Assembly (NCBI RefSeq): GCF_056712565.1
Contig: NZ_CM160072.1
Strand: one strand, 5' to 3'
Length of the DNA stretch: 64,000 nt
The notes under the pieces are model-generated. The model did no database searches. It was not told the DNA's origin and was given only the letters and a program-made list of their open reading frames with translations. Position numbers and translations under genes: made by a program. Positions 1 through 19,782 of this stretch are shown here, piece by piece. The stretch's first letter is position 1. Every line of letters starts with the position of its first letter.

Positions 1-1247
1 ATTGGCATCCAGGCAGCAATACCACTGGGATCGTTAGTGTGGATCACCCAGGAAATGATTGCAGAACCAACCAGTGGCGCGATCCCTCCGGCAATAACGG
101 CAGAAACTTCCCTTGCCAGTGCGACGCCAATATAACGATGGCGAGCACCAAAGAGTTCAGGCAGAAAAGCACCTTGTGCACCAAACATACCCCAGGCTCC
201 AATCCCTAAGGCCAGAGAAAGAGAGACAATAGTGACAGGAACATTACCGTGGCTGAAAGACCACCACACCGGAAAGGTAATCAACAACTGAAAAATCGCC
301 AGACTACGATAGACAAGAACCCTGCCGAAGCGATCGGTCAGCCAACCGGCAATAGGCACCATAATTGCACCGACTACTACCGCAGACATCAGGCATAGCG
401 TACCAACTGATTTGTCCAGCCCAACCACACCAACGATATAACTGATCGCTAAAGCCTGATAAATCGACGAGCCGCCGTTTTCTGCCAGACGTAAGCCAAT
501 CCCGACGAAGACATTACGGCGTGATGTTTTCAGCAAATTTCGTAAGGGTGATTCTGTAACTTGTTGACGAGCTTCGAGTTTTGCGAATGATGGCGATTCT
601 TTAAGATGCAGTCGAATATAAATAGCCACCGCGATAATCACCACGCTGGAGAGGAAGGGCAAGCGCCACCACCAGGTTTCGGCAAGATTTGTCACATTAT
701 GCAGCAGGATGAAGTAAACGGCAGATGCCATAAACGTACCAATCTGGATTCCGAGGAACGGCAGCGCGGCGTAATAACCCCGTTTGCCGTCAGGAGCATA
801 TTCGGTCATCAGTACGGCGGCTCCCGCCTGTTCAGCCCCAGCACCAAGCCCTTGCAGCAGGCGTAATGCAATAAGCATAATTGGCGCCCAGATTCCCGCT
901 GTTTCGTAAGTGGGTAATACCCCGATCAACGTGCTGGCGATTCCCATTAACAACACCGTTGCTAACAGGACGAACTTACGGCCCAAACGATCACCTAATG
1001 AGCCGAAGATAATTCCGCCTACAGGTCTGACGGCAAATCCGAGAAAGTAGGTGCCAAAACTGGCGATCAGCGCCATTCCCGGTTCCTGATTAGGAAAAAA
1101 GAGTGGACCAAAAATAATGGCGGATGCCAGGCTGTAAAGTGCGAAATCGTAGTATTCCAGTGCGCTGCCGAGAGAGCAGGTCCACGCCGCGCGACGCAGA
1201 TCTGCCGATGAAACATTCGCTTTCTCTGCTGGTTGTGAAGGTTGCAT
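1..1247 (-). CDS. MFS transporter, metabolite:H+ symporter (MHS; KgtP/ProP/ShiA-like) family; N-terminus at 1247, C-terminus beyond window start (partial)
   Basis: Own translation of the reverse strand from ATG (complement of 1245-1247) gives MQPSQPAEKANVSSADLRRAAW...; AAGGAG Shine-Dalgarno 6 nt upstream; MHS-type motifs EYYDFALY, RPVGGIIFGSLGDRLGRK and WLTDRFGR. Not in the ORF track because it runs off the window. Confidence 0.8.
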   Translation of the reverse strand, partial: MQPSQPAEKANVSSADLRRAAWTCSLGSALEYYDFALYSLASAIIFGPLFFPNQEPGMALIASFGTYFLGFAVRPVGGIIFGSLGDRLGRKFVLLATVLLMGIASTLIGVLPTYETAGIWAPIMLIALRLLQGLGAGAEQAGAAVLMTEYAPDGKRGYYAALPFLGIQIGTFMASAVYFILLHNVTNLAETWWWRLPFLSSVVIIAVAIYIRLHLKESPSFAKLEARQQVTESPLRNLLKTSRRNVFVGIGLRLAENGGSSIYQALAISYIVGVVGLDKSVGTLCLMSAVVVGAIMVPIAGWLTDRFGRVLVYRSLAIFQLLITFPVWWSFSHGNVPVTIVSLSLALGIGAWGMFGAQGAFLPELFGARHRYIGVALAREVSAVIAGGIAPLVGSAIISWVIHTNDPSGIAAWMP

Positions 1248-1337
1248 GATGTGTCTCCTTTCAGACGGATAAAAGAAATCCGCCTAAAATCAATGGGATT
1301 CTTGCGTTATTATTAAAATCCAAAATGAAATGCTAAG

Positions 1338-2117
1338 TTATCGAGCACTAAAGTGCGGTTGACGCTTCTCAGTAAATGCCTGACTGCCTTCATGAGCATC
1401 TTCAGTCGTGGCGGAAAAAGCGCCAGCCAGTGCTTCAAGCGTCGAGGCCACAGCAATACCTTCTCCGGCATCAATAACCTGCTTGGCGATCTGCACTGCA
1501 ACGGGAGCACGCTGGGCGATACGTTGTGCCAGTTGCAGTCCGGCGTCGTGTAACGCCTCCCTGGCGACAACGCGATTCACCAGCCCGCAGGACAGTGCCC
1601 GCTGTGCATCCAGTGGTTCACCGGTAAATACCAGTTCTTTCACCAGTGAGCGCCCAAGCAGTGCCGTCAGCCGCTGCGTTCCTGACCAGCCAGGCACTGT
1701 CGCCAGCCCGGTTTCTGGTAGTGCCATTTGTGCTTCGGCGCTACAAATACGGATATCGGTGGTAGCAGCCAGTTCCAGACCACCGCCATAAGCCAGGCCG
1801 TGCAACAGGGCGATTACGGGCTGTGGCAGTTGTGCCAGAGCATCAAATGCCTGATGACCGCGGCGGATCCAGTTGCGCCACATATCGAGTGCAGAAAGAG
1901 AGGTCCAGCGATGAATATCCGCGCCGACACAAAACGCTTTTTCACTGGCACTGGTCAGCAGTACTACGCGGATCTCCGAATCAGTTTCCAACGTGTGGCA
2001 ATGCGCCAGCAGTTGTTCGAGCATCTCTGGGGTTAATGCGTTGAGTTTTGCCGGGCGATTAATCACCAAAGTGGCAATGAAACCGTTGCGCTGGAGGTCA
2101 ATGGTGCCGTTATTCAT
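1338..2117 (-). CDS. enoyl-CoA hydratase/isomerase (crotonase superfamily)
   Basis: 259-aa ORF; crotonase-type motifs with both catalytic Glu positions (YGGGLELAATTD and ALPETGL); start overlaps the stop of the upstream CoA-transferase gene by 8 nt. Confidence 0.8.
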   Translation of the reverse strand: MNNGTIDLQRNGFIATLVINRPAKLNALTPEMLEQLLAHCHTLETDSEIRVVLLTSASEKAFCVGADIHRWTSLSALDMWRNWIRRGHQAFDALAQLPQPVIALLHGLAYGGGLELAATTDIRICSAEAQMALPETGLATVPGWSGTQRLTALLGRSLVKELVFTGEPLDAQRALSCGLVNRVVAREALHDAGLQLAQRIAQRAPVAVQIAKQVIDAGEGIAVASTLEALAGAFSATTEDAHEGSQAFTEKRQPHFSAR

Positions 2118-3681
2118 GGTGACGTCCTTGTTGAAAATAGTGGGGATTCATTAGTTTGAGATCGTCTGCCAGACGGAGTGGGGCATTGCTTTGGGCGAGA
2201 ATGTCGCGTTCAGGATCAATACCTGGGGCAATTTCCGTGACCAGTAGTCCGTCTGGGGTTAATTCCAGCACGCAGCGTTCAGTGATGTACTGCACTTGTT
2301 GCCCGAGTCTTATTGCGCGTTTGCCGGAGAACGTCACGTGGGCGACGTCCTGTACCAGTTTTTTGGCTTTGCCTTCTTTAATGATACGCAGCTGACCCTC
2401 TTCCAGTTGCAGTTGGGCACCGGCATTGAAAAAGCCAGAGAAAATAATGCGCTTCGCATGTGAGGTGATATCAATAAATCCACCGCATCCGGCAGTGACA
2501 TGTGGACGAGCGGGGAGATGTGAGACGTTCACTGAGCCATCTGCGCCGATTTGTAAAAACGACATCAGAGTGAGATCAAAGCCACCGCCCTGGAAATAGG
2601 TGAACTGCTGGGGAGAGGGCAAAAATGCTTCTGCATTAGAGGCACAACCGAACTGAAATTCCAGCAGTGGAACTCCGCCAATCGCGCCCTGTTCCAGCAG
2701 CCAGGTGACGTCACCGTGGCGACCTTGTTCCAGTAAAATGCGTGGTACGTTGGCAGAAATACCAAAGCCAATATTTACCGCATCTCCACTTTGTAGTTCT
2801 TGCGCGACTCGCTGGGCAATAACTCGCGCCGGGCCATGTTCCATATAACGAAAGGCTGATAGCGGACGACTGATTTCGCCGGAAATGGCAGGTTCATATT
2901 GCGTTTGTGTCGTTTGTGTTTGTTCCGGCGCAATCACGATGTAATCCACCAGTACACCCGGAATACGCACCTCTTTTGGTTTCAGACTTCCGGCGGCAAC
3001 CTGTCGTTTTACTTGCGCAATTATGATGCCACCATTATTGCGAACGGCAGTAGCCTGTTCCAGTGGCCCCAGATAAGCCCCTTCATGTTCATAAGTCAGG
3101 TTGCCGCGTTCATCGGCAGTGGTAGCGCGAATGATCGCCACCTGCGGCACGATACTGGGGAAAAACAGCCAGTCGTCGTTAGCAAATCGAACACGTTCAA
3201 CCAGAGATTGTTGCGCCGCTTTTTCATTCATTGCACCGCCCTGCAACAGGGGATCCACATAGGTATCCATGCCTGTTTGTGTCAGCACGCCAGGACGATG
3301 AGCCGCCGCTTCCCGGTGCATATCAAATAAGATCCCGGAAGGCAGATTCCAGGCGGGGATCGCGTTGTCATTGATCATTTGCCAGATTAACGGAGGCGCC
3401 ATTGATGATGGACCGGAGGGGTAGGAGCCAGCGATCACTTTTGCCAGTAAGCCCGGTTGCGCCAGATGATCGATGCCTTTTACGCCATACATATCACCAG
3501 CGGCGATAGGGTGGATGGAGGTGATGTTTTGCGGATGTCCGGCACGTTGAAAGCGTTCACCTATTGCTGCCAGCACCGCATCCGGACACCCCATTCCACT
3601 GGAGGAGGAGACGGTGACAACTGCGCCATCAACAATCAAATCTGCAGCTTCCGGTGCAGTGATCGTGCGTACAGAGCACAT
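2110..3681 (-). CDS. family I acyl-CoA:acetate CoA-transferase, fused alpha/beta (YdiF/Pct-like)
   Basis: 523-aa ORF; blocks AAAHRPGVLTQTGMDTYVDP, IRATTADERGNL and RIPGVLVDYIV align with E. coli YdiF as I recall it; E-x-G catalytic motif LLEQGAIGG; AAGGA SD before the ATG. Confidence 0.8.
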   Translation of the reverse strand: MCSVRTITAPEAADLIVDGAVVTVSSSSGMGCPDAVLAAIGERFQRAGHPQNITSIHPIAAGDMYGVKGIDHLAQPGLLAKVIAGSYPSGPSSMAPPLIWQMINDNAIPAWNLPSGILFDMHREAAAHRPGVLTQTGMDTYVDPLLQGGAMNEKAAQQSLVERVRFANDDWLFFPSIVPQVAIIRATTADERGNLTYEHEGAYLGPLEQATAVRNNGGIIIAQVKRQVAAGSLKPKEVRIPGVLVDYIVIAPEQTQTTQTQYEPAISGEISRPLSAFRYMEHGPARVIAQRVAQELQSGDAVNIGFGISANVPRILLEQGRHGDVTWLLEQGAIGGVPLLEFQFGCASNAEAFLPSPQQFTYFQGGGFDLTLMSFLQIGADGSVNVSHLPARPHVTAGCGGFIDITSHAKRIIFSGFFNAGAQLQLEEGQLRIIKEGKAKKLVQDVAHVTFSGKRAIRLGQQVQYITERCVLELTPDGLLVTEIAPGIDPERDILAQSNAPLRLADDLKLMNPHYFQQGRHHE

Positions 3682-3936
3682 AATAATTTCCTTGTTTCGA
3701 TATAAAAATAATTAAAAATATGCATTTAAAACAATATGATAATTTTCATAAATTAATTGGAACGATCTAATTTATGCGTAATTTGTACGATTAGGGTGTA
3801 AAAAACACAACAAGGGAAGTGCGAATCTGTGATCGAAACGACGATCTCCTGCGATCCCTTGCGTTAACGGATCGCATGAGTAAAAGGAGATTATGATAAA
3901 GTAATTGCCTTGATCTTATGGGGGTTTGGAGCAGGC

Positions 3937-4971
3937 ATGGCGAAGTCGGATACAGGAAGAAAGCGGGTAACATTAACCGATGTTGCGCGTGCGGCTGGCG
4001 TTTCGAAATCGACCGTATCGCTGGTTCTCAACGACAGTTCACTTATCAAAAAAGAGACTCAACAAAAAGTCCAGCAAGCCATTGAACAATTAGGCTATGT
4101 CTATAACCGTTTTGCTGCCAATCTGCGTTCGCAAAAATCGCTAACTATCGGCGTAGTCATTGACGATTTGATAAATCCTTTCTTCGCTGAATTTACTATG
4201 GGTCTTGAGATGACGCTGGCGGAGCACGGTTTTATCACCGTGATGTCCAATACCTCCCAGCGTAGTGACCGGCAAAAACAGGTGCTTGATACCTTGCTGG
4301 AACACCACGTCGCGGGCATTGTCCTCTGTCCAGTGAACAGTACCTCAGAAGCCGATTTACAGCGTTATGCCAACAGTTCCACACCCTTATTAATCACGAT
4401 GCGCCCTCTGGATTGGCAACAATTGCCCGTCGATTACGTTGGCGTGGACAGCCACGCAGGTGTACGGGAAGCGACGGAATATCTCATTCAACAAGGGCAC
4501 AGAGATATCGTGTTTATTGGTGGTCTTACGCACCATATGCGTTATCAGGGATACCTTGAGGCGATGAATCACCATGGTTTACAGCCGTGGAGTACTGATG
4601 CTTTTTCGCTGCGTGCTGAACCGACTCAGGCCAACGGCTACCAGTTGATGCAACAGCTGTTGGATATGCCTTCGCCACCCACAGCGGTGATTTGTTATAA
4701 CGATTTAATGGCTTTTGGCGCGGAGTCGGCACTAGGCGAAAGAGGATTATTTGCCGGGGAAGATATTTCGTTGATTGGTAATGATGGCGTGGCGGCTTGT
4801 GCTTACAGTAACCCGCCGTTAACCACAATTGCGGTAGAACCATTGGCTCTGGGGAAACAGGCGGCGCAGCAAATTTTACGGCGTATTGCGCAACCAGACG
4901 CACCGCTCAGCCATTACATCTATCGCCCGACCCTGCAAATTCGCGCTTCCACCGGAAAGCGGGGGCGTTAA
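3937..4971 (+). CDS. LacI/GalR-family transcriptional regulator, divergent from the CoA-transferase operon
   Basis: ORF-track ORF 3910-4971 trimmed to ATG 3937 (GGAG SD 5 nt upstream); N-terminal HTH VTLTDVARAAGVSKSTVSLVLN; periplasmic-binding-like effector domain. Confidence 0.8.
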   Translation: MAKSDTGRKRVTLTDVARAAGVSKSTVSLVLNDSSLIKKETQQKVQQAIEQLGYVYNRFAANLRSQKSLTIGVVIDDLINPFFAEFTMGLEMTLAEHGFITVMSNTSQRSDRQKQVLDTLLEHHVAGIVLCPVNSTSEADLQRYANSSTPLLITMRPLDWQQLPVDYVGVDSHAGVREATEYLIQQGHRDIVFIGGLTHHMRYQGYLEAMNHHGLQPWSTDAFSLRAEPTQANGYQLMQQLLDMPSPPTAVICYNDLMAFGAESALGERGLFAGEDISLIGNDGVAACAYSNPPLTTIAVEPLALGKQAAQQILRRIAQPDAPLSHYIYRPTLQIRASTGKRGR

Positions 4972-4977
4972 ATGCTG

Positions 4978-5000
4978 TAGCGAGAAACTGTTTCTCGCTA
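4978..5000. promoter_or_regulatory. perfect 23-bp palindrome TAGCGAGAAAC-T-GTTTCTCGCTA between the LacI-type gene stop and dnaB start; operator or terminator stem, function unknown
   Basis: Read directly: 11-bp arms pair perfectly around a single central T; lies 7 nt after the regulator stop and 44 nt before the dnaB ATG. Confidence 0.5.
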
Positions 5001-5043
5001 TACTCTCTTGTCCCCCATTCAACAGCAGGTAACACCATTCGTT

Positions 5044-6459
5044 ATGGCAGGCAATAGACCTTTCAACAAACAACAGACTGATAACCGCGAACGCGATCCA
5101 CAAGTTGCCGGGCTGAAAGTGCCTCCGCACTCGATCGAAGCGGAGCAGTCGGTGTTGGGCGGTTTAATGCTGGATAACGAACGCTGGGATGATGTAGCTG
5201 AGCGTGTGGTGGCAGATGATTTTTACACCCGCCCACACCGTCATATCTTTACTGAAATGGCGCGTTTGCAGGAAAGCGGTAGTCCTATCGATCTGATTAC
5301 CCTTGCGGAATCGCTGGAACGCCAGGGGCAACTCGATAGCGTCGGTGGTTTTGCTTATCTGGCAGAGCTGTCAAAAAATACGCCAAGTGCGGCGAACATC
5401 AGTGCATATGCGGATATCGTGCGCGAACGTGCCGTTGTTCGTGAGATGATCTCCGTTGCTAACGAGATTGCCGAAGCTGGTTTTGATCCACAAGGGCGTA
5501 CCAGTGAAGATCTGCTCGACCTTGCTGAATCCCGCGTCTTTAAAATTGCCGAAAGTCGTGCAAACAAAGACGAAGGGCCGAAGAACATCGCCGATGTGCT
5601 CGACGCAACCGTGGCGCGTATTGAGCAGTTGTTTCAGCAGCCACACGATGGCGTTACCGGGGTAAATACCGGTTATGACGATCTCAACAAAAAAACCGCT
5701 GGCTTGCAGCCGTCGGATTTGATCATCGTTGCCGCGCGTCCGTCGATGGGTAAAACGACATTTGCGATGAACCTCGTCGAAAACGCGGCGATGTTGCAGG
5801 ATAAACCGGTGCTTATCTTTTCGCTGGAGATGCCATCAGAACAGATTATGATGCGTTCTCTGGCGTCGCTGTCGCGCGTTGACCAGACTAAAATCCGTAC
5901 CGGGCAGCTCGATGATGAAGACTGGGCACGCATTTCCGGCACCATGGGTATTTTGCTCGAAAAACGCAATATCTATATCGATGATTCCTCCGGCTTGACG
6001 CCAACGGAAGTGCGTTCCCGCGCACGCCGTATTGCCCGTGAACACGGCGGCATCGGGCTTATCATGATCGACTACCTGCAACTGATGCGCGTACCGGCGC
6101 TTTCCGATAACCGTACGCTGGAAATTGCAGAAATCTCCCGCTCGCTGAAAGCACTGGCGAAAGAACTGAACGTGCCGGTGGTGGCGCTGTCCCAGTTGAA
6201 CCGTTCTCTGGAACAACGTGCCGACAAACGCCCGGTCAACTCCGACCTGCGTGAATCTGGCTCTATCGAGCAGGATGCGGACTTGATCATGTTTATCTAT
6301 CGTGATGAGGTGTATCACGAAAACAGTGATTTAAAAGGCATCGCGGAAATTATTATCGGTAAACAACGTAACGGCCCAATCGGGACGGTACGCCTGACCT
6401 TTAACGGTCAATGGTCGCGCTTCGACAACTATGCGGGGCCGCAGTACGACGACGAATAA
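5044..6459 (+). CDS. dnaB: replicative DNA helicase DnaB
   Basis: 471 aa from ATG 5044 (MAGNRPFNKQQ...); Walker A PSMGKTTFA; ORF-track ORF 5008-6459 has a 12-codon upstream extension that I reject. Confidence 0.95.
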   Translation: MAGNRPFNKQQTDNRERDPQVAGLKVPPHSIEAEQSVLGGLMLDNERWDDVAERVVADDFYTRPHRHIFTEMARLQESGSPIDLITLAESLERQGQLDSVGGFAYLAELSKNTPSAANISAYADIVRERAVVREMISVANEIAEAGFDPQGRTSEDLLDLAESRVFKIAESRANKDEGPKNIADVLDATVARIEQLFQQPHDGVTGVNTGYDDLNKKTAGLQPSDLIIVAARPSMGKTTFAMNLVENAAMLQDKPVLIFSLEMPSEQIMMRSLASLSRVDQTKIRTGQLDDEDWARISGTMGILLEKRNIYIDDSSGLTPTEVRSRARRIAREHGGIGLIMIDYLQLMRVPALSDNRTLEIAEISRSLKALAKELNVPVVALSQLNRSLEQRADKRPVNSDLRESGSIEQDADLIMFIYRDEVYHENSDLKGIAEIIIGKQRNGPIGTVRLTFNGQWSRFDNYAGPQYDDE

Positions 6460-6511
6460 TAATTATTTTATGAATTAGGTAATTAAAGCAAACACTTATC
6501 AAGGAACACTA

Positions 6512-7591
6512 ATGCAAGCGGCAACTGTTGTGATTAACCGCCGCGCTCTGCGACACAACCTGCAACGTCTTCGTGAACTGGCGCCTGCCAGTAAAATGGT
6601 TGCGGTGGTGAAAGCGAACGCTTATGGTCACGGTCTTCTTGAGACCGCGCGAACGCTCCCCGATGCTGACGCCTTTGGCGTAGCCCGTCTCGAAGAAGCT
6701 CTGCGACTGCGTGCGGGGGGAATCACCAAACCTGTACTTTTACTCGAAGGCTTTTTTGATGCCAGAGATCTACCGACGATTTCTGCGCAACATTTTCATA
6801 CCGCCGTGCATAACGAAGAACAGCTGGCTGCGCTGGAAGAGGCTAGCCTGGACGAGCCGGTTACCGTCTGGATGAAACTCGATACCGGTATGCACCGTCT
6901 GGGCGTAAGGCCGGAACAGGCTGAGGCGTTTTATCATCGTCTGACCCAGTGCAAAAACGTTCGTCAGCCGGTGAATATCGTCAGCCATTTTGCGCGCGCG
7001 GATGAACCAAAATGCGGCGCAACCGAGAAGCAACTCGCTATCTTTAATACCTTTTGCGAAGGCAAACCTGGTCAACGTTCCATTGCCGCGTCGGGTGGCA
7101 TTTTACTCTGGCCACAGTCGCATTTTGACTGGGTGCGCCCGGGCATCATTCTTTACGGCGTATCTCCGCTGGAAGATCGCTCCACCGGTGCCGATTTTGG
7201 CTGTCAGCCAGTGATGTCGCTAACCTCCAGCCTGATTGCCGTGCGTGAGCATAAAGCCGGAGAGCCTGTCGGTTATGGTGGAACCTGGGTAAGCGAACGT
7301 GATACTCGTCTTGGCGTAGTCGCGATGGGCTATGGCGATGGTTATCCGCGCGCCGCGCCGTCCGGTACGCCAGTGCTGGTGAACGGTCGCGAAGTGCCGA
7401 TTGTCGGGCGCGTGGCGATGGATATGATCTGCGTAGACTTAGGTCCACAGGCGCAGGATAAAGCCGGGGACCCGGTCATTTTATGGGGCGAAGGTTTGCC
7501 CGTAGAACGTATCGCTGAAATGACGAAAGTAAGTGCTTACGAACTTATCACGCGCCTGACCTCAAGAGTCGCGATGAAATACGTGGATTAA
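6512..7591 (+). CDS. alr: alanine racemase, biosynthetic
   Basis: 359 aa; PLP-lysine motif [10 protein letters not shown]; conserved position after dnaB. Confidence 0.95.
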
Positions 7592-7613
7592 TATTCGTCT
7601 CCAGGGAGGGACA

Positions 7614-8171
7614 ATGTCTTATTCAGAAATCGCCGCGTGTCTGGCATACGCGGTTTCCGTCTGGCTGGCTGCCAGAAACAATGTGCATACATGGTGGATC
7701 GGCATAATTGGCAGCATATTGTACGGCTGGGTTTTTTGGTCTGTGCAACTCTATGCCGACGTTACGCTCCAGTTATTCTTCATCGCGACCAGCATCACTG
7801 GCTGGATCCACTGGCTGAAAGGTCAGGGTGGCGACATCTTGCCGGTGCGCCGAACGCAAGCCAGTCACTTTTTCCTTTTGTTGCTCTGTGCTGTCGTCGT
7901 GGCAGGCGGTTACGGCTTTTTACTCCACACCTTTACCAATGCCTGGGCACCCTGGCTGGATTCGTTGATTTTGACCTTTAGCGTTCTGGCACAATTCATG
8001 TTGATGGGAAGACGTATCGAAAACTGGTTCGTCTGGTTAGCGGTGAATACCCTGGCAGTGCCACTGTATATGACGCGCGGTTTAAACCTGACCGCTGGCT
8101 TATATTTCCTGTTCTGGATTAACGCCTGGCATGGTTTGTATCAATGGCGCAAAGAGTTGCAAACATCATGA
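7614..8171 (+). CDS. PnuC-family nicotinamide riboside transporter homolog (compact, 185 aa)
   Basis: Blocks VQLYADVTLQLFFIATSITGWIHW and RRIENWFVWLAVNTLAVPLY align with E. coli PnuC (IQLYASLLLQVFFFAANIYGWYAW; RKYVENWLLWVIINVISVV) as I recall it; GGGAGGG SD; begins 22 nt after the alr stop. Confidence 0.75.
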   Translation: MSYSEIAACLAYAVSVWLAARNNVHTWWIGIIGSILYGWVFWSVQLYADVTLQLFFIATSITGWIHWLKGQGGDILPVRRTQASHFFLLLLCAVVVAGGYGFLLHTFTNAWAPWLDSLILTFSVLAQFMLMGRRIENWFVWLAVNTLAVPLYMTRGLNLTAGLYFLFWINAWHGLYQWRKELQTS

Positions 8172-9166
8172 AGCCTTTTGCAACGGGCCTGGTGGTTGGT
8201 AAATTCGCGCCTTTGCATTGTGGTCATGAAAAGTTGATCAATACCGCACTGGCGCAATGTGAAGAACTGTTCATCATCAGTTATTCCGTGCCGGAAATGC
8301 CTGACTGTGAACCTGAAAAGCGCCTGACGTGGCTGCAAGTGCGCTTCCCGCAAGCGACGATTTTGGTACTGACGCCAGAGCTTGTTGCGCGTTATAACTT
8401 ACCTGCCATACCGCATAACGATGCCGACATCCACCGTCATTATGTGGCGACGCTGTGCCTGCAGATATTACGCTGTCGTCCACATGCTGTATTTACTGCA
8501 GAAGACTATGGCGATGGCTTTGCTAACGTGCTGGCGCGGCGTTTTGCCCAACCCGTTGAACACGTTCGAATGGCGCGCCCAGTTGGCGATGAAGCGCCTT
8601 CGGGAACGCTTATTCGTTCCGATGTTCACCGCTATCGCTACATGTTGGCGAATGATGTTTATTACAGTTTCGTTCGCCGTATCTGTCTGCTTGGTGGCGA
8701 ATCTACCGGTAAAAGCACGCTTTCAAAAGCGCTGGCGGATGGGCTTGATACGGTGTATGTCGCTGAATTTGGCCGCGACTATTGGGAAGAAAAAAACGGA
8801 ATCTTAACCGCGGATGATTTGTTGCATATCGCCTGCGAACAGGTACGCCGGGAACAACAAGCAGAAGCTAATCACTATCTTATATGTGACACGTCGCCAC
8901 TCACGACCTTGTTCTATGCCCTTGATCAATATGGTCATGCTCCGCAAGAACTTCATCAACTGGCGGAGCGGGAATACTCTCTGGTGGTGCTTTGCGGCGC
9001 AGAATTTCCCTTCGTGCAGGATGGCACCCGGCAAGGAGAGGTATTTCGCGCACGGCAACAGGTGTGGTATGAACAGGAATTATCGCGCAGGAATATTCCT
9101 TATCTTTCTGTTTCGGGTTCGCTGCAAGAGCGACTGGGGCAAATTCTACATCGCCTTCCCGACTGA
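8168..9166 (+). CDS. NadR-like bifunctional NMN adenylyltransferase / ribosylnicotinamide kinase lacking the N-terminal HTH domain
   Basis: ORF-track ORF 8144-9166 trimmed to ATG 8168, which overlaps the upstream TGA (ATGA coupling); nucleotidyltransferase motif GKFAPLHCGH; Walker A GGESTGKST; same domain order as NadR without the DNA-binding domain. Confidence 0.75.
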   Translation: MKPFATGLVVGKFAPLHCGHEKLINTALAQCEELFIISYSVPEMPDCEPEKRLTWLQVRFPQATILVLTPELVARYNLPAIPHNDADIHRHYVATLCLQILRCRPHAVFTAEDYGDGFANVLARRFAQPVEHVRMARPVGDEAPSGTLIRSDVHRYRYMLANDVYYSFVRRICLLGGESTGKSTLSKALADGLDTVYVAEFGRDYWEEKNGILTADDLLHIACEQVRREQQAEANHYLICDTSPLTTLFYALDQYGHAPQELHQLAEREYSLVVLCGAEFPFVQDGTRQGEVFRARQQVWYEQELSRRNIPYLSVSGSLQERLGQILHRLPD

Positions 9167-9247
9167 CTTTGAACATCCACTCGATCTTCGTCTACTTCCG
9201 GTTTATTGTGTTTTAACCACCTGCCCGTAAACCTGGAGAACCATCGC

Positions 9248-10441
9248 GTGTTTCAAAAAGTTGACGCCTACGCTGGCGACCCGATTCTTACGCTTATGGA
9301 GCGTTTTAAAGAAGACCCTCGCAGCGACAAAGTGAATTTAAGTATCGGTCTGTACTACAACGAAGACGGAATTATTCCACAACTGAAAGCCGTAGCGGAT
9401 GCGGAAGCGCGCCTGAATGCGCAGCCTCATGGTGCTTCGCTTTATTTACCGATGGAAGGGCTTAACAGCTATCGCCATGCCATTGCGCCGCTGCTGTTTG
9501 GTGCGGACCATCCGGTACTGCAACAACAGCGCGTAGCAACCATTCAAACCCTTGGCGGCTCAGGGGCATTGAAAGTGGGTGCAGATTTCCTGAAACGCTA
9601 CTTCCCGGAATCAGGCGTCTGGGTCAGCGATCCTACCTGGGAAAACCACGTAGCAATATTCGCCGGGGCTGGATTCGAAGTAAGTACTTACCCCTGGTAT
9701 GACGAAGCGACTAACGGCGTGCGCTTTAATGACCTGTTGGCGACGCTGAAAACATTACCTGCCCGCAGTATTGTGTTGCTGCATCCATGTTGCCACAACC
9801 CAACGGGTGCCGATCTCACTAATGACCAGTGGGATTCCGTGATTGAAATTCTCAAAGCCCGCGAGCTTATTCCATTCCTCGATATTGCCTATCAAGGATT
9901 TGGTGCCGGTATGGAAGAGGATGCCTACGCCATTCGCGCCATTGCCAGCGCTGGATTACCCGCTCTGGTGAGCAATTCGTTCTCGAAAATTTTCTCCCTT
10001 TACGGCGAGCGCGTCGGCGGACTTTCTGTTCTGTGTGAAGATGCCGAAGCCGCAGGCCGCGTACTGGGGCAATTGAAAGCAACCGTTCGCCGCAACTACT
10101 CCAGCCCGCCGAATTTTGGTGCGCAGGTGGTGGCTGCGGTGCTGAATGACGAGGCATTGAAAGCCAGCTGGCTGGCGGAAGTAGAAGAGATGCGTACTCG
10201 CATTCTGGCAATGCGTCAGGAACTGGTGAAGGTATTGAGCACAGAGATGCCAGAGCGCAATTTCGATTATCTGCTTAATCAGCGCGGCATGTTCAGTTAT
10301 ACCGGTTTAAGAACCGCTCAGGTTGACCGACTACGTGAAGAATTTGGTGTCTATCTCATCGCCAGCGGTCGCATGTGTGTCGCCGGGCTTAACGCGCAAA
10401 ATGTGCATCGCGTGGCAAAGGCGTTTGCTGCGGTGATGTGA
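9248..10441 (+). CDS. tyrB: aromatic amino acid aminotransferase TyrB
   Basis: 397 aa from GTG 9248 ([14 protein letters not shown]...), matching the K-12 length; PLP-lysine context [16 protein letters not shown]. Confidence 0.9.
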
Positions 10442-10449
10442 TTTTAATC

Positions 10450-10473
10450 AACAGGCGGATCTCTCCGCCTGTT
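10450..10473 (+). terminator. stem-loop after tyrB (10-bp stem, 4-nt loop, no clear U-tract)
   Basis: AACAGGCGGA-TCTC-TCCGCCTGTT read directly 9 nt after the tyrB stop. Confidence 0.4.
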
Positions 10474-10571
10474 CCTGACTCCAGCCATCCCCTACTATTC
10501 TGTCCCTTTTTTCGCCCACTTTTACATCATCTCTTTTCTATAAGTTTTTGAAAATTAGTGTTTTTAACTGT

Positions 10572-10587
10572 TGGTACGGATTGTGCA
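10572..10587 (+). promoter_or_regulatory. candidate sigma-54 (-24/-12) promoter for the 2-oxoglutarate dehydrogenase operon
   Basis: TGGTACGGATTGTGCA: GG and GC separated by 10 nt, two mismatches to TGGCACG-N4-TTGC; 36 nt upstream of the E1 ATG; an NtrC-family activator gene is in the same island. Confidence 0.55.
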
Positions 10588-10622
10588 GTAATGCGGCTGT
10601 CTATGACCATCAGGAGAAAAAC

Positions 10623-13367
10623 ATGGAGAACATGACCTCGCCCGGCACGCTGCTTAGTGGAGATAACGCGACCTGGCTTGAAGAGTACTACCAGACCTGG
10701 TTGCGTACGCCGGAACAACTCCCGGAAGACTGGCGGCGTTTTTTTCTTTCACCTGAACTGACTGTCCAAAGCGTATCCGGTGATAACAACGTCAGCGGTG
10801 CGACGTTAAAAAAACAGGCTGCGGTAATACAACTGATCAATGCCTGGCGCACGCAGGGGCATCTGCGCGCAAAGCTTGATCCACTTGGTTTGAATCCCCC
10901 AGCTGACGTTCCCTCCCTCCAGCCTGGTTTTTGGGGATTAAGCGAAGAAGACTTGTTGCAGGAGTTTAGCGTCACCTTTGGCGCACACACCACGCAAATG
11001 CCACTTAAGCAACTGCTTAACCTGCTGGAGCAAGCCTGGGCCGGTAGCCAGGCTTATGAACTTGCTCATCTGGAAAATCGTGAAGAAATCAACTGGTTGT
11101 TATCACGGATTGAGAGCAGCAATGCGCCACAAGCTGATGCCCAAACCTGCATTGCCCGTTTTGAAAAACTGATGGCGGCAGAGACGTTAGAGCGTTATCT
11201 GCATACCCGTTATGTTGGGCAGAAACGGTTTTCTCTGGAAGGGGGCGAAAGTGCAATCCCGGCGCTCGATACGCTGACAAAACGCCTGCGTGCGCAAGGT
11301 GTGGAGGAAATGGTCATTGGCATGGCGCACCGGGGAAGACTTAATGTTCTGGTTAATCTGTTGAATAAAGACCCGGCACAGCTTTTTGCTGAGTTTGAAG
11401 GCAAGCAGACGATCGGCAGTGGTTCAGGCGATGTGAAATACCACATGGGGTATTCCAGCAATCTGGAAACACCTGCCGGTTCGCTGCATGTGGCGCTGGC
11501 GTATAACCCCTCACATCTGGAGATCGTGAATCCGGTGGTGCTGGGCCAGGTGCGAGCCAGGCAGGAACGCCGTGGTGAGGATGGTCAGGCAAAAGTGGTG
11601 GGCGTACTTATTCATGGGGATTCCGCGTTGGGCGGCCTCGGCGTCAACCAAACCACGTTTAACTTATCGCAGACTCAGGGCTACGGCACTGGCGGTACGC
11701 TACATCTGGTGATTAACAATCAGATTGGCTTCACCACTTCCCGCTTGCAGGATATGCGTTCTTCACGGTACTGCACCGATATTGCCAAAATGGTAGCGGC
11801 CCCAATTATCCACGTTAATGGCGATGACGTTGACGCTGTTTGCCAGGTAATGGAACTGGCGTGCGAATGGCGAGACACCTTCCGGCGCGACATCATCATC
11901 GATATTTGCTGCTTCCGTAAGCACGGACACAACGAAAGCGATGAGCCACGTCTTACCCAGCCACAAATGTATCAGGCAGTGGATGCTCACCCTGGTACGC
12001 TCGCCCGTTATGGTGAATCTCTTGCCCGCCGCGGCCTGTTAACTCAGGCGCAACAAGATGAGATGACGGCACGCTATCGCGACTGGCTGGATAGCTGCCA
12101 GAAACGTGAACCGCAGCCTCTCAAACCTGCAATTCACTCTTTTAGCGCTAACTGGTATGGGTTGACCAACCCTCACTGGAGCGCCCCGGTATCTACGGCA
12201 TTGCCTCGGCAAAAGCTGGCAGCGTATGGTGAAATCATTTCTACACTGCCACCCGATGTGGTCGCACATCCTACCATTAAACGGCAACTGGCGTTACGCC
12301 AGGATATGGCCGCAGGTACTCAGCCAATAGACTGGGGAATGGCTGAAATGCTGGCCTATGCATCGCTTGTGGATGCGGGTGTTGGTGTGCGTCTTTCTGG
12401 TGAAGACTCAGGGCGTGGCACGTTCAGTCATCGCCATGCAGTGGTACATCATCAAACTGAAGCCCGTCGTTATCTGCCGTTACAGCATATCCGCGCTGGT
12501 CAGGCATCTTTCGATGTTTATGATTCGGTGCTTAATGAAGAAGCGCTCTTAGCCTTTGAATATGGCTATTCAACGTCTGCGCCTCAGCAACTGGTTATTT
12601 GGGAAGCGCAGTTTGGTGACTTTGCCAACGGCGCTCAGGTTGCTATTGACCAGTTTATCTCGTCTGGCGAAACCAAGTGGGATCGCTATAGCGGTTTAAC
12701 CATTCTTCTGCCGCATGGCTATGACGGACAAGGGCCGGAGCACTCTTCTGCGCGTCCTGAGCGCTGGCTGCAACTGTGCGCAGAAAACAACATGCAGGTG
12801 GTGATGCCCAGTGAGTCAGCACAAATGTTCCATTTGCTGCGCGGTCAGGCATTACGCCCAATGCGCAAACCGTTAGTGATAATGATGAGTAAGCGTTTAC
12901 TTCGGTTTAAAGGCGCTATGAGCGAGCTTTCTGAATTCACTGATGGCGCTTATAAACCGGTAGTCACCGATCCGCAATTGCATCAGTCCCAGAAAGTTAA
13001 GCGCGTTATTTTGTGTAGCGGCCAGGTCTATTACGACGTACTGGAAGCCCGTAAGCAGCGTGAGTGTGAAGATGAGGTAGCGATTGTTCGCCTGGAGCAA
13101 CTCTACCCGTTCCCGGTCGCAGAACTGAATGATGTTCTGGCGAGTTGGCCGAACTGCTGCGAATGGATTTGGTTGCAGGAAGAGCCAGAAAACCAGGGCG
13201 CGTGGCGGCAGATTCGTCATGAGCTGGCGGCACTGAAAATTAACACTCCTTACTGGCAGTATGCAGGCCGCCCGGCAGTGGCAGCTCCGGCGACAGGGTA
13301 TGGGCGTGTACATAAACAACAAATCGACGAATTTCTTGCTGCTGCGTTTGCAGATATTCAGCCATGA
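10623..13367 (+). CDS. 2-oxoglutarate dehydrogenase E1 component paralog (SucA-like)
   Basis: ORF-track ORF 10548-13367 (TTG) trimmed to ATG 10623 with AGGAGA SD; ThDP region HGDSALGGLGVNQTTFNLSQTQGYGTGGTLHLVINNQIGFTTS parallels SucA. Confidence 0.9.
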   Translation: MENMTSPGTLLSGDNATWLEEYYQTWLRTPEQLPEDWRRFFLSPELTVQSVSGDNNVSGATLKKQAAVIQLINAWRTQGHLRAKLDPLGLNPPADVPSLQPGFWGLSEEDLLQEFSVTFGAHTTQMPLKQLLNLLEQAWAGSQAYELAHLENREEINWLLSRIESSNAPQADAQTCIARFEKLMAAETLERYLHTRYVGQKRFSLEGGESAIPALDTLTKRLRAQGVEEMVIGMAHRGRLNVLVNLLNKDPAQLFAEFEGKQTIGSGSGDVKYHMGYSSNLETPAGSLHVALAYNPSHLEIVNPVVLGQVRARQERRGEDGQAKVVGVLIHGDSALGGLGVNQTTFNLSQTQGYGTGGTLHLVINNQIGFTTSRLQDMRSSRYCTDIAKMVAAPIIHVNGDDVDAVCQVMELACEWRDTFRRDIIIDICCFRKHGHNESDEPRLTQPQMYQAVDAHPGTLARYGESLARRGLLTQAQQDEMTARYRDWLDSCQKREPQPLKPAIHSFSANWYGLTNPHWSAPVSTALPRQKLAAYGEIISTLPPDVVAHPTIKRQLALRQDMAAGTQPIDWGMAEMLAYASLVDAGVGVRLSGEDSGRGTFSHRHAVVHHQTEARRYLPLQHIRAGQASFDVYDSVLNEEALLAFEYGYSTSAPQQLVIWEAQFGDFANGAQVAIDQFISSGETKWDRYSGLTILLPHGYDGQGPEHSSARPERWLQLCAENNMQVVMPSESAQMFHLLRGQALRPMRKPLVIMMSKRLLRFKGAMSELSEFTDGAYKPVVTDPQLHQSQKVKRVILCSGQVYYDVLEARKQRECEDEVAIVRLEQLYPFPVAELNDVLASWPNCCEWIWLQEEPENQGAWRQIRHELAALKINTPYWQYAGRPAVAAPATGYGRVHKQQIDEFLAAAFADIQP

Positions 13368-13399
13368 AAGGCGCACAAAAATAATAAGGAGAACATTTT

Positions 13400-14554
13400 A
13401 TGATCGAAATTACTGTCCCTGTATTACCGGAATCTGTCACGGAAGGCACGCTGACAACCTGGTGTAAACAAGAAGGCGAGCACGTAAAACGCGATGATGT
13501 GATTGCCGAGCTGGAAACCGATAAAGTCATTCTGGAAATACCGGCCCCGCACGATGGCGTGTTAAGCAATATTATCGTCAGCGAAGGTAGCACGGTCACG
13601 TCCGCGCAACTGTTGGCGCATCTTAAGCCGCAAGCTGTCATAGAAGAAACCGTCACACCAGTCACCGAAACCCTGGCGATGCCTTCCGCACGGCTGGAGG
13701 CACAGCGTAGTGGTGTTGAACTTGCTGACGTTGCGGGGAGCGGGAGAAATGGACGTATCCTGAAAGAGGATGTACAGCGCGTTACTCCTGCACCAGTCAT
13801 TCAGCCTGAACGGGTGGCGGAGATCGCGCCAGCTAAACCCTTGACACCGGGTGCTCGTCAGGAACGTCGTGAGCCGATGTCGCGCTTACGTCAGCGAATT
13901 GCTGAGCGTCTGCTGGCTTCCCAACAAAATAACGCCATTCTTACCACATTCAACGAAGTAAACATGCAGAGCGTGATGGATTTACGCACCCGCTGGAAAG
14001 ATCGTTTTGCCGAGAAGCACGGCGTGAAGCTGGGCTTTATGTCCTTCTTTGTTAAGGCCGTTACCCGGGCGCTGGAGCGCTTCCCTGTAGTGAATGCCAG
14101 CGTTGATGGCAACGAGATTATCTGGCGTGATTATTGCGATATCGGCATTGCAGTGAGCAGCAACCGCGGCCTGGTAGTGCCTGTGTTACGCAATGCGCAA
14201 TCACTCTCTTTGGTGGAAATTGAACGGCAAATTGCCGAATACGCCACACAGGCACGCAATGGCAAATTGCCGCTGGAGGCGTTACAGGGCGGCACGTTCT
14301 CTATCACCAACGGCGGTACTTTTGGTTCGATGATGTCAACGCCAATCATTAACCCGCCGCAGTCGGCCATTCTTGGGATGCATGCCATCACGCCGCGCCC
14401 GGTCGCAGAAAACGGCCAGGTTGTTATTCGTCCCATGATGTACCTTGCTCTCAGCTATGACCATCGCATTATCGATGGTCAGGAAGCCGTGCAGACATTG
14501 GTGGCAATACGTGAGCTACTGGAATCACCGGAACAACTGTTGCTGGATCTTTAA
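13400..14554 (+). CDS. dihydrolipoyllysine-residue succinyltransferase E2 paralog (SucB-like)
   Basis: 384 aa; lipoyl-lysine motif [14 protein letters not shown]; catalytic [11 protein letters not shown]; AAGGAGA SD. Confidence 0.9.
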
Positions 14555-14565
14555 GGAGGGCGCCG

Positions 14566-15984
14566 ATGAGTACAATTTTTGATGTGGCAGTTATGGGGGG
14601 TGGGCCAGGTGGTTACGTAGCGGCACTGCGGGCTGCGCAGAATGGGCTTTCCGTAGTATGTATTGATGATGGTGTTAATGCACAGGGCGAACCTTCGCCG
14701 GGCGGTACGTGTCTCAATGTCGGCTGTATTCCGTCAAAATCGTTGCTGCAATCTTCCGAGCTGTACGCGCAAGTACAGCATGAGGCAAGCATTCATGGCG
14801 TTAACGTTGAAGGCGTATCTTTCAATGCTGCCGCGATGATTCAACGTAAAGATGCCATAGTAAGCCGCCTGACAATGGGCATCAGCTTGCTGTTTAAGAA
14901 AAATAAAGTGAAGCACTTGTGCGGCCTCGCAACGTTAGAACGTGCTCAGGATGAGATTTGGCAATTACGCGTAAACGATCAACACATTCACGCCCGTAAT
15001 GTAGTGATTGCAACAGGTTCTCAGCCGCGTCAGCTGCCTGGCGTTACCATTGATAATCAACAGATCCTCGACAATCGTGGCGCCCTGGCATTGAGCGAAG
15101 TGCCGCCGCGTCTCGGTGTGATCGGCGCTGGCGTGATTGGCCTTGAACTGGGGTCTGTGTGGAATCGGGTCGGTTCAGATGTCACGCTGCTGGAGATGGC
15201 GCCAACGTTCTTGCCTGCACTGGAAGCTCGCCTGTCGAACGAAGTCCGTAAAGCAATGATTGCCAGTGGGATGAAAATGCAACTGGCAGTAGAGATTGAG
15301 GCTATTGAACAACGGGATGACGGTGTGCATGTGCGCTGGCGGCAGGGTGAGAAGCGAGAAGAAAGCCGCTTCGATAAATTAATTCTTGCCATTGGACGTG
15401 TACCGCGACTTTCTGGTGTCGATCTCGTGCAACTCGGTCTTGAAGCCGATAACCGTGGCGGTATTGCCGTCGATAACTTATGCCGTACCGGGAAAGCCGG
15501 GCTGTGGGCAATTGGTGATGTCGTGCGAGGGCCGATGCTGGCGCATAAAGCGATGGCTGAAGGTGTGGTGGTTGCGGATCAAATTGCCGGACTGGCGGTA
15601 GAGCCGATTAATTTTGCGCTGATCCCTTCGGTGATTTACACCCAACCGGAAGTTGCGTGGGTAGGGGAAAACGAGGCCTCACTGAAAGCCGCTGGCAGAG
15701 TCTTTAACAAAGGAAATTCTCTGTTTGCCGGTAACGGTCGCGCCTTAGCATTAGGCCAGGAAGGTGGGCGTTGCACGTTATACAGCGATAAACACACTGA
15801 CCGCGTACTTGGCGGAGCGATTGTTGGCCCGCAGGCATCGGAGCTGATCAATGAAATTGCGCTGGCGATGACTTTTAGCGCCTCTGGCGAGGATATTGCC
15901 TGTGCGATCCATGCGCATCCGACCTTAAGCGAAGTCATCCACGAAGCAGCAATGGCCTTGAATAATAAAGCATTACACGGATAA
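14566..15984 (+). CDS. dihydrolipoyl dehydrogenase E3 paralog (Lpd-like)
   Basis: 472 aa; FAD fold GGGPGGYVAALRAAQ; redox-active disulfide CLNVGCIPSK. Confidence 0.9.
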   Translation: MSTIFDVAVMGGGPGGYVAALRAAQNGLSVVCIDDGVNAQGEPSPGGTCLNVGCIPSKSLLQSSELYAQVQHEASIHGVNVEGVSFNAAAMIQRKDAIVSRLTMGISLLFKKNKVKHLCGLATLERAQDEIWQLRVNDQHIHARNVVIATGSQPRQLPGVTIDNQQILDNRGALALSEVPPRLGVIGAGVIGLELGSVWNRVGSDVTLLEMAPTFLPALEARLSNEVRKAMIASGMKMQLAVEIEAIEQRDDGVHVRWRQGEKREESRFDKLILAIGRVPRLSGVDLVQLGLEADNRGGIAVDNLCRTGKAGLWAIGDVVRGPMLAHKAMAEGVVVADQIAGLAVEPINFALIPSVIYTQPEVAWVGENEASLKAAGRVFNKGNSLFAGNGRALALGQEGGRCTLYSDKHTDRVLGGAIVGPQASELINEIALAMTFSASGEDIACAIHAHPTLSEVIHEAAMALNNKALHG

Positions 15985-16005
15985 CACATACCACTGAGGG
16001 AATAT

Positions 16006-17175: not shown

Positions 17176-17187
17176 CAGGAGGTTAAG

Positions 17188-18060
17188 ATGAGCGTTTTGA
17201 TCAACAAACACACGCGGGTACTGGTGCAGGGCATTACCGGCAAAAACGGCACATTTCATACAGAGCAGGCTATTGCGTATGGCACGCAGATTGTGGGTGG
17301 AGTGACGCCAGGTAAGGGCGGGCAACGGCATCTGGATCGCCCGGTTTTTGATTCAATGAAAGAAGCGATGCGACAAACTGAGGCTGATGCCAGCGTGATT
17401 TATGTGCCTGCACCGTTTGTGCTGGATTCTGTTGTTGAGGCTATTGAAGCTGGCGTCAAATTGGTTGTGGTGATCACTGAAGGTGTACCGACACTGGATA
17501 TGGTGAAAGTTCGTCGGCTGCTTGACTGCCACCCGGATGTGCGGCTGATTGGGCCAAACTGCCCAGGAGTTATCACGCCGGGCGAGTGCAAAATCGGGAT
17601 TATGCCTGGTGAAATCCACCGCCCAGGGCGTATTGGGATTGTTTCCCGCTCCGGTACATTAACCTACGAAGCTGTAGCGCAAACCACGGCGCTGGGACTT
17701 GGGCAATCCACCTGTATTGGTATTGGCGGCGATCCGGTTCCGGGGACTAACTTTATTGATGCGCTGCGTTTATTCGAAAATGATCCGCAAACAGACGCGG
17801 TAATTATGATCGGTGAAATTGGTGGTAATGCGGAAGAACGGGCTGCGGAATTTATTCGTCATGAAATGAATAAACCGGTCGTAGGTTATATTGCCGGTGT
17901 TACTGCACCAAAAGGAAAACGCATGGGGCACGCCGGAGCCATTATTTCTGGCGGTAGCGGCAGTGCAGAGGATAAATTCCGTGCGTTCGATAAAGCAGGC
18001 ATGGCATGGACAAGAAACCCGGCGTTGCTTGGCGAAACGTTATGGAATGTTATTAAGTAA
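17188..18060 (+). CDS. succinyl-CoA synthetase alpha subunit paralog (SucD-like)
   Basis: 290 aa; CoA-binding N-terminus [14 protein letters not shown]; phosphohistidine region [17 protein letters not shown]. Confidence 0.9.
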
Positions 18061-18078
18061 TCCATAAATGAATATCAA

Positions 18079-19771: not shown

Positions 19772-19782
19772 GGAAACCAACG

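Follow-up and report, generated by a model that had tools for sequence, protein, structure and literature searches.

A LacI-linked CoA-transferase, crotonase and flavoprotein module beside dnaB in Escherichia coli, possibly serving a carbohydrate-derived acid

Why should a repressor of the sugar-responsive type stand beside enzymes of acyl-coenzyme A (CoA) chemistry, and which compound would such a combination serve? The question is raised by the first 4971 positions of a 64,000-nucleotide stretch of DNA (the window; NCBI RefSeq assembly GCF_056712565.1, contig NZ_CM160072.1), in which genes for a transporter, an enoyl-CoA hydratase and a CoA-transferase are transcribed away from a LacI-family regulator gene that lies next to dnaB. 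The DNA of the window is identical to that of several Escherichia coli genomes, including S88, IHE3034, APEC O18 and ATCC 11775. An earlier reading of the letters alone (the original prediction) had described the genes as an accessory operon for the import and CoA activation of a small carboxylic acid, with acrylate and crotonate among the candidates, and had considered a LacI-type regulator unusual for such a pathway. The transporter data and the gene neighbours of a flavoprotein encoded just beyond the window point instead to a polyhydroxylated, carbohydrate-derived acid, and we tentatively propose that the genes form a self-contained five-gene accessory catabolic module, by which a hexuronate-like acid of carbohydrate origin would be taken up and degraded via CoA esters.

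The four predicted open reading frames are all present at the positions given for them, barring the start of the regulator gene. On the minus strand lie the first 415 codons of a probable MHS-family organic-acid/H+ symporter of the MFS (1–1247), a crotonase-superfamily enoyl-CoA hydratase/dehydratase of 259 residues (1338–2117) and a family I CoA-transferase of 523 residues (2110–3681; YdiF/Pct type, fused alpha/beta), the last two genes overlapping by 8 bp. The assignments of the hydratase and the CoA-transferase draw on the list of open reading frames and on NCBIfam, and in the case of the CoA-transferase also on a match to the YdiF structure. The transporter gene ends outside the window, and according to the RefSeq annotation of S88, where the full gene encodes 466 residues, the remaining 51 codons follow beyond the window start. 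The divergent gene on the plus strand encodes a LacI-family transcriptional regulator of 344 residues (3937–4971; RefSeq start, NCBIfam); its end at 4971 was predicted correctly, while the start predicted at 3910 is corrected to the ATG at 3937, which is the most likely one, as it is RefSeq's choice and is conserved in two orthologous loci. Given this ATG, the AT-rich divergent control region has exactly the predicted length of 255 bp (3682–3936, 33.7% G+C), and it contains conserved blocks in an alignment with the two orthologous loci. The start of dnaB at 5044 lies 72 bp past the stop of the regulator gene. Open reading frames and family profiles together thus bear out the predicted operon structure, and the suspicion that the module continues past the window start was justified: the gene order in S88 is qorA, a 682-residue flavin adenine dinucleotide (FAD)-dependent oxidoreductase, the 466-residue MFS transporter, hydratase, CoA-transferase, divergent LacI and dnaB. 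The statement that no dehydrogenase is visible therefore holds inside the window and fails just beyond its start.

The same five genes are found together elsewhere in another chromosomal setting at 78–90% amino-acid identity and with the MHS carrier, in a further setting at 67–82% amino-acid identity and with an Nramp-like carrier, and the module is also found in Raoultella. Compared with orthologues of 67–90% amino-acid identity, dN/dS is 0.04–0.09 (hydratase, 0.05–0.07), which shows that the open reading frames are not due to chance and that the genes are under strong purifying selection. The regulator is 80–84% identical among the orthologous modules, and its counterpart in strain CFT073 (c5025) has been detected in the proteome of urine-grown cells.

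Both CoA enzymes retain their catalytic residues. The CoA-transferase scores 338 bits against the YdiF structure 2ahu over residues 5–516, is of the FadX/3-oxoacid type by NCBIfam, and has orthologues for which PF01144 is recorded, and hence shows the fused alpha/beta CoA_trans fold of ~520 residues. In the alignment, its Glu330 (LLEQGAIGG) stands opposite YdiF residue 333 (TVETGPIGG), which we take to be the catalytic glutamate that forms the enzyme–CoA thioester. The protein is thus a family I CoA-transferase with the catalytic glutamate in place, CoA transfer itself being a prediction. It shares fold, length and the aligned glutamate with YdiF and propionate CoA-transferase, but is only ~38% identical by eye, and its operon is a different one in which it is accompanied by a crotonase, a flavoprotein and a regulator of the sugar type. 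The hydratase reaches 217 bits with the short-chain enoyl-CoA hydratase model (cut-off 394) and 145 bits with that of the crotonobetainyl-CoA hydratase CaiD (cut-off 500), and its best solved relatives are the 3-hydroxypropionyl-CoA dehydratase 5zai (190 bits) and short-chain enoyl-CoA hydratases. The motifs FCVGAD and GGG (oxyanion-hole glycines, ECH_1 fold) are present, as are both glutamates of true hydratases, Glu115 in GGGLE and Glu135 in LPETG, which by their motifs presumably correspond to Glu144 and Glu164 of the rat enoyl-CoA hydratase.

The flavoprotein is an unusual component. Its 682 residues include an FAD_binding_2 domain (Pfam E = 2.8e-14), and among proteins of solved structure, it is related in sequence only to L-aspartate oxidase and complex-II flavoproteins (E about 1e-9); neither sequence nor fold searches found a close solved structure. 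The AlphaFold model (pLDDT 81) matches FrdA and SdhA with a Foldseek probability of 1.0 at 14–20% identity, and the profile of the family aligns with FrdA and NadB at an hhalign probability of 99.6; residues 80–165 are modeled with low confidence, yet are invariant in sequence. The protein is therefore a divergent member of the succinate dehydrogenase/fumarate reductase/L-aspartate oxidase superfamily. In FrdA, the pair H355/R390 binds the substrate carboxylate, and these residues align with H437 and R469 of the flavoprotein. The covalent-FAD histidine (FrdA H44) is missing, G276 takes the place of FrdA H232, and the regions of T244/E245 (TEGxRGEGG) and R287 are not conserved, so that the full dicarboxylate site and the proton shuttle are absent. 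As only the H355/R390 equivalents are retained and the other FrdA residues are lost, the flavoprotein is not a fumarate reductase, succinate dehydrogenase or aspartate oxidase, and its scores against NCBIfam equivalogs stay at or below 117 bits where the cut-offs exceed 450 (e.g., 117 vs. 718). It shares the FAD_binding_2 domain, the overall fold and the His/Arg pair with FrdA, SdhA and L-aspartate oxidase, but at the low identity given above and without a gene for an iron-sulfur partner. Judged by its residues, the flavoprotein probably binds a carboxylate next to the flavin, and the pattern of retained and lost positions would fit a monocarboxylate substrate and a different chemistry. The family has >7,700 matches of ~690 residues, none of which carries more than a generic name, and in its tree the genomic context tracks taxonomy, with no CoA-specific clades.

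One connection between these enzymes and sugars is the regulator. It gives full-length matches to the MalI, RbsR, PurR and LacI models (NCBIfam), and for its orthologues PF00356 and Peripla_BP domains are recorded, as befits an N-terminal helix-turn-helix and an effector domain resembling periplasmic binding proteins. The alignment of the control region with the two orthologous loci revealed a conserved palindrome with the consensus TTGGAACGTTCCAA. Within the window, the only match at up to two mismatches is TTGGAACGATCTAA (3757–3770; two mismatches, central CG), a candidate LacI-family operator located 76–89 bp upstream of the CoA-transferase start, through which the LacI-type repressor probably controls the module. 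The palindrome is conserved in alpha-, beta- and gammaproteobacteria: with 0–1 mismatch, it lies upstream of CoA-transferase, flavoprotein, Gfo/Idh/MocA, GMC and LacI genes in many loci, and 29 sites with at most one mismatch occur in 1.40 Mb across 19 loci, compared with 0–1 in shuffled sequences. In other proteobacteria it precedes the orthologous CoA-transferase, crotonase and flavoprotein genes as well as genes for hexose uptake, sugar-oxidizing enzymes and a kinase resembling that of 2-keto-3-deoxygluconate (KDG). The shared operator therefore places the CoA enzymes, the flavoprotein and the sugar-oxidizing genes in one regulon, which accounts for a sugar-type repressor beside acyl-CoA enzymes; what had seemed unusual is a conserved feature of this regulon. 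Across most of the alpha- and beta-proteobacterial clusters, the LacI proteins are 33–46% identical to the regulator. The control region holds a second conserved inverted repeat, GATCG-N6-CGATC (3831–3846), the arms of which are conserved and the spacer variable in the three-locus alignment; both arms contain GATC (Dam) sites. A promoter scan gave no more matches than shuffled sequences did.

The neighbourhood of the flavoprotein was compared across 80 genomic loci encoding members of its family, in which genes were called and clustered and recurrent families annotated, and three arrangements recur. The first comprises TetR-linked clusters of Enterobacterales with SDR, Gfo/Idh/MocA, TIM-barrel, acid-type MFS and flavoprotein genes, and without CoA enzymes. 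The second, located between ytfB and rplI in E. coli (4155–13938 of locus L003; CFT073 c5298–c5303), is a paralogous cluster that encodes TetR, SDR, a TIM barrel, a crotonase, a CoA-transferase, a flavoprotein of 52% identity, and either a TRAP or a D-galactonate-type carrier; D-galactonate-type MFS carriers are found in sister clusters too. The structures closest to the TRAP binding protein are 4ovr, 4x8r and 4n8y, which we take to be complexes with glucuronate or galacturonate. This cluster is common in E. coli, is absent from K-12 according to a 2010 synteny table, and is uncharacterized.

The third arrangement consists of LacI-linked clusters in alpha- and beta-proteobacteria, and it is with these that the module belongs, because its CoA-transferase shares 58–67% identity with theirs, but no more than 38% with the counterpart in the E. 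coli paralogue. A complete Rhizobium operon contains LacI, Gfo/Idh/MocA, CoA-transferase, crotonase, aldehyde dehydrogenase and sugar ABC transporter genes, then two GMC oxidoreductases, a levoglucosan-dehydrogenase-like Gfo enzyme, the flavoprotein and a KdgK-like kinase; an aldolase gene sits past a gap of 180 bp and may be unrelated. The ABC binding protein scores 554 bits with 4r2b and 345–361 bits with glucose/galactose-binding proteins. In Rhodobacteraceae, the kinase gene is followed by a gene that was judged by eye to encode an Eda-type aldolase. The idea that the GMC pair and the CoA-transferase/crotonase pair are alternative modules was dropped, since the full Rhizobium operon holds both and 10-kb flanks had cut them off, and the ectoine genes beside one Rhizobium locus were assigned to a neighboring cluster. 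In Raoultella, a flavoprotein of the paralogue type (70% identity) is paired with B2-type partners. This mixed pairing, together with the Enterobacterales clusters that have the flavoprotein and no CoA enzymes, indicates that the flavoprotein probably acts on a compound at the level of a sugar acid. The Raoultella module adjoins a co-directional run (5618–11077 of locus L100) in which two IclR-family genes are followed by genes for a class III CoA-transferase, a crotonase, an MFS carrier and a GH88-family hydrolase; in this run, seen in one genus only, there is a direct link between CoA chemistry and an unsaturated-uronide hydrolase.

The transporters bear on the substrate class. The MHS carrier scores 353 bits with TIGR00883 (metabolite/H+ symporter) over its whole length, which is below the curated cut-off of 443, and its close homologues are named as MHS family; orthologues of 62–83% identity are widespread in proteobacteria, one of them inside the Raoultella module, and a Burkholderia orthologue sits among hydroxy-acid dehydrogenases. 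The alternative carrier encoded at the same place in other E. coli lineages is annotated as Nramp-like. Nramp transporters bind metal through the motifs DPGN and MPH, both of which are lacking in this protein and in four relatives, and it scores 81 bits with the MntH model (cut-off 430). A relative of 64% identity is encoded in an operon with UxuA, a mannitol-dehydrogenase-family (UxuB-like) gene, UxaC and a GntR regulator, and relatives of 51–52% are found in SusC/D or sulfatase-rich glycan-utilization loci. Members of this clade, annotated as "Nramp family divalent metal transporter" (loci L092–L096), thus occur in hexuronate operons and polysaccharide-utilization loci. By this context and the lack of both motifs, the cargo of the clade is probably not metals but sugars or sugar acids, and the presence of transporter relatives in hexuronate and glycan loci favors a carbohydrate-derived, probably hexuronate-like, acid over short-chain acids.

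From these observations we infer a substrate, a sequence of steps with their directions, and a reaction for the flavoprotein as follows. The importer (MHS, or Nramp-like in other lineages) would take up a polyhydroxylated carboxylic acid derived from carbohydrate, most likely a hexuronate-like one, and the flavoprotein would carry out a two-electron redox step at the carbon or carbons beside the free carboxylate. The CoA-transferase would then form the thioester, with acetyl-CoA or product-CoA as the donor, and the crotonase, exploiting the acidified alpha-proton, would catalyze the addition or elimination of water (a beta-hydroxyl or beta-alkoxy group) across C2–C3. The CoA would be handed on to the next substrate molecule, and the product, a keto-deoxy sugar acid, would be completed by core enzymes (Kdu, KdgK, Eda). 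Substrate class and KDG end product would probably be shared with the catabolism of hexuronates and unsaturated uronates (ExuT, UxaC, UxuAB, KduI, KduD, KdgK, Eda), because of the transporter relatives and the KdgK-like kinase of the orthologous clusters, but the canonical route works without CoA and without a flavoprotein, and the island encodes none of its enzymes. For sugar acids, a route through CoA esters has almost no precedent. One is the 2-deoxyribonate acyl-CoA route of Klebsiella michiganensis, in which a sugar acid is processed as a CoA ester and MFS carriers are encoded in the cluster, but which employs a CoA synthetase, a 3-hydroxyacyl-CoA dehydrogenase, a thiolase and a glycerate kinase and has neither crotonase nor flavoprotein; because of these different enzymes it was rejected as a match for the island. 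A broader version of the proposal, held with less confidence than the local one and rather doubtful when all its parts are taken jointly, is that E. coli of the phylogroup-B2 type and many alpha-, beta- and gammaproteobacteria share a LacI regulon marked by TTGGAACGTTCCAA that degrades a hexuronate- or unsaturated-uronate-like acid via CoA thioesters, with a crotonase replacing the usual dehydratases, lyases and isomerases, a new clade of the succinate dehydrogenase/L-aspartate oxidase superfamily adding a redox step on a sugar acid, and the "Nramp" clade carrying sugars or sugar acids.

Several points weigh against the degradation of a hexuronate-like acid. The flavoprotein is given no necessary role, as activation and beta-elimination alone would yield a keto-deoxy acid; the substrate is assigned from sequence and genomic context; the ligands of the TRAP structures and of 4r2b are presumed; and the GH88 and flavodoxin neighbors are found in Raoultella only, among all loci compared, carry little weight, and no operator lies beside the GH88 gene. 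By contrast, every enzyme has a role if the substrate is a C3–C4 acid such as 3-hydroxypropionate, acrylate, 3-oxopropionate or crotonate, which would be activated by the Pct-type transferase and interconverted between 3-hydroxyacyl-CoA and enoyl-CoA by the crotonase, with the flavoprotein reducing or forming the enoate. In the case of the larger proteobacterial clusters, the sugar would release a C3 fragment, and it is this fragment that the CoA enzymes would handle. Reductases of the fumarate-reductase type that act on acrylate exist. The closest solved relative of the hydratase is, as noted, a 3-hydroxypropionyl-CoA dehydratase, a flavodoxin gene follows the flavoprotein gene in Raoultella, and genes of the Qor/acrylyl-CoA-reductase family lie beside the flavoprotein gene in a few loci. 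There is also a documented case of a CoA-transferase/crotonase pair working on the C3 fragment of a sugar-like pathway, the oxcT-ecdH-acaD operon of Anaerostipes rhamnosivorans, which converts 3-oxopropionate to propionate after inositol catabolism. Compared by description, it combines a 3-oxoacid/propionate-type CoA-transferase with an enoyl-CoA hydratase and a dehydrogenase in one operon and is tied to an iol-type pathway of Gfo/Idh/MocA, TIM-barrel, PfkB-kinase and aldolase enzymes; it differs in handling a C3 fragment with an acyl-CoA dehydrogenase and Etf, where the island has the superfamily flavoprotein and sugar-acid-like carriers. A small acid nevertheless appears unlikely as the substrate, although it is the alternative to be taken most seriously. 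It sits poorly with the hexuronate and glycan contexts of the transporter relatives, with flavoprotein genes that stand beside sugar-type enzymes without any CoA enzymes, with the absence of the proton-donor arginine of fumarate reductases, and with a conserved LacI regulator and operator that suggest a sugar-like effector; moreover, if the gene after the kinase in Rhodobacteraceae does encode an Eda-type aldolase, cleavage would leave no C3 acid.

The MHS carrier raises another possibility, since its best equivalog is the shikimate transporter (268 bits) and its 64% homologue in Azotobacter vinelandii adjoins a shikimate-dehydrogenase-like gene, both of which likewise count against a hexuronate. 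A carbocyclic polyhydroxy acid of the shikimate or quinate type would be converted to its CoA ester, its ring double bond hydrated by the crotonase and its ring desaturated or oxidized by the flavoprotein, following a logic like that of cyclohexanecarboxyl-CoA pathways. The Gfo enzymes of related clusters also score to inositol dehydrogenase, and shikimate would be nearly isosteric with a 4,5-unsaturated uronate. We regard such a substrate as improbable, given that the ABC binding protein of the orthologous Rhizobium operon falls in the glucose/galactose-binding group, that the closest relative of the Nramp-like carrier is encoded in a hexuronate operon, and that the island has no ring-cleaving hydrolase and no dehydroshikimate dehydratase. 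Slightly more improbable still is a reductive electron sink of the carnitine (cai) type, in which a hydroxy acid would be activated, dehydrated and reduced by the flavoprotein, and the saturated acid excreted. The order of transporter, CoA-transferase, crotonase and flavoenzyme presumably parallels caiT, caiB, caiD and caiA, the CaiD model is matched to the extent given above, the Raoultella flavodoxin could provide low-potential electrons, and the flavoprotein superfamily includes many reductases. Yet the orthologous regulon of aerobic alpha-proteobacteria includes many oxidases and dehydrogenases and has a kinase at its end, joined at some loci by a probable aldolase; E. coli encodes no electron-donor module here, and the missing proton-donor arginine tells against a reduction as well. 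The cai operon encodes the class III CoA-transferase CaiB, the acyl-CoA-dehydrogenase-type CaiA and the BCCT carrier CaiT. The island has a class I transferase, a flavoprotein with the succinate-dehydrogenase fold and an MHS or Nramp-like carrier, and is thus not a cai operon; a dedicated importer, a CoA-recycling transferase, a crotonase dehydratase and a flavoenzyme are common to both by analogy only.

The module is an accessory one, as K-12 has only an 82-bp spacer between qorA and dnaB, which are direct neighbors there as the original prediction had stated; 66 bp of this spacer are swapped for 7,324 bp in S88 (blastn of K-12 vs. S88). The right boundary lies at 5027/5028, the last 16 bp ahead of the dnaB start being again similar to K-12 (K-12 positions 3799–4000 align to 20028–20229 of the S88 locus L001). 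The block has an ordinary base composition (51.2% G+C vs. 51.9% for the window), and no mobility genes are annotated in it in the S88 RefSeq record, no search for flanking repeats having been made; from annotation and G+C, it is not a classical mobile genomic island with integrase, tRNA target, flanking repeats and deviant composition. Two findings had been named in advance as refuting the original prediction, namely that the proteins are ordinary orthologues from a characterized pathway of known substrate, or that genomes like K-12 have the block at this site; no characterized orthologous pathway was found, and the block is missing from K-12.

Among 5,426 complete E. coli genomes, the block is carried by 826 (about 15%), of which 279 have the MHS transporter and 547 the Nramp-like gene in the same place. 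The ST131-type strain SaT040 represents the latter, with a gene of the "Nramp family" encoding 409 residues instead of the MHS gene (4682–5911 of locus L002). Outside the transporter, the two alleles are 98–99% identical in DNA, and the flavoproteins are 97% identical. The swapped segment takes in 16 codons of the flavoprotein gene on one side and reaches 11 bp into the 3' end of the hydratase gene on the other; in a blastn comparison of S88 with SaT040, it corresponds to L001 14810–16349 (window positions -190 to 1349), with L002 4636–6000 as the counterpart. The right breakpoint was placed at 1248–1349, as identity with the ST131-type allele is restored at ~1350 and the partial matches in the 547 genomes begin at base 1350. 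The transporter gene alone has thus been exchanged between E. coli lineages, with breakpoints at the gene borders.

That the block exists was known from RefSeq annotation and from the 2010 synteny table, which lists it as CFT073 c5020–c5025 under "3-ketoacid metabolism." A literature search with locus tags returned only this table and one proteomic mention of c5025, and a search with the combination of enzymes returned nothing or analogies only, with no functional study among the results. For a repressor-controlled accessory catabolic operon with CoA-transferase and crotonase chemistry, its flavoprotein and its probable class of substrate are unusual. The block is a marker of extraintestinal pathogenic lineages (ST95-type and ST131-type, labels which we presume from the names of strains among the matches) and would provide a nutritional capacity missing from K-12. 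Should the substrate indeed be a sugar acid derived from host or diet, the block would be a new niche determinant, and the combination of CoA activation and crotonase chemistry would be a new biochemistry of sugar-acid degradation. The module also offers functional handles on three groups that are still little understood, namely the flavoprotein family, the conserved LacI regulon and the "Nramp" clade without metal-binding motifs, and the conserved operator makes the question of the substrate directly testable.

Some further observations concern the borders of the block and the remainder of the window. After the regulator gene, but inside the accessory block, a scan for terminator-like elements found a hairpin with a 12-bp stem (4976–5002, plus strand), which is a consensus match only. 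In 4972–5043, carriers of the island keep only the last 16 bp before dnaB, so that the region upstream of the helicase gene differs from that of K-12, this hairpin included. At the other end, the E. coli block abuts the core gene qorA (11720–12703 of L001), and a gene of the Qor/PIG3 quinone-oxidoreductase family adjoins the flavoprotein gene in several unrelated taxa (loci L012, L032, L043, and L083); this proximity may be coincidental, may reflect a functional link, or may stem from a homology anchor through which the block was acquired.

Farther downstream, alr and tyrB, which are adjacent in K-12, are separated by a gene for the nicotinamide riboside transporter PnuC (pnuC) and one for an AAA-ATPase (7614–9166). 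A second accessory block follows tyrB at about 10600–24000, with 2-oxoglutarate dehydrogenase E1/E2/E3-like and sucCD-like genes, a DASS symporter, an Ldh-family oxidoreductase, a sigma-54 regulator and a sensor kinase; we take it to be the alpha-ketoglutarate utilization island of CFT073 (kgu, c5032–c5041). Its sigma-54 regulator is a pseudogene in the RefSeq annotation of S88, yet is an intact open reading frame of 452 codons in the window. At about 52200–57300 (ECS88_RS24460–24480 in S88), a five-gene ABC transporter cluster (binding protein, two permeases and two ATPases) is located between yjcO and fdhF, which are presumably adjacent in K-12.

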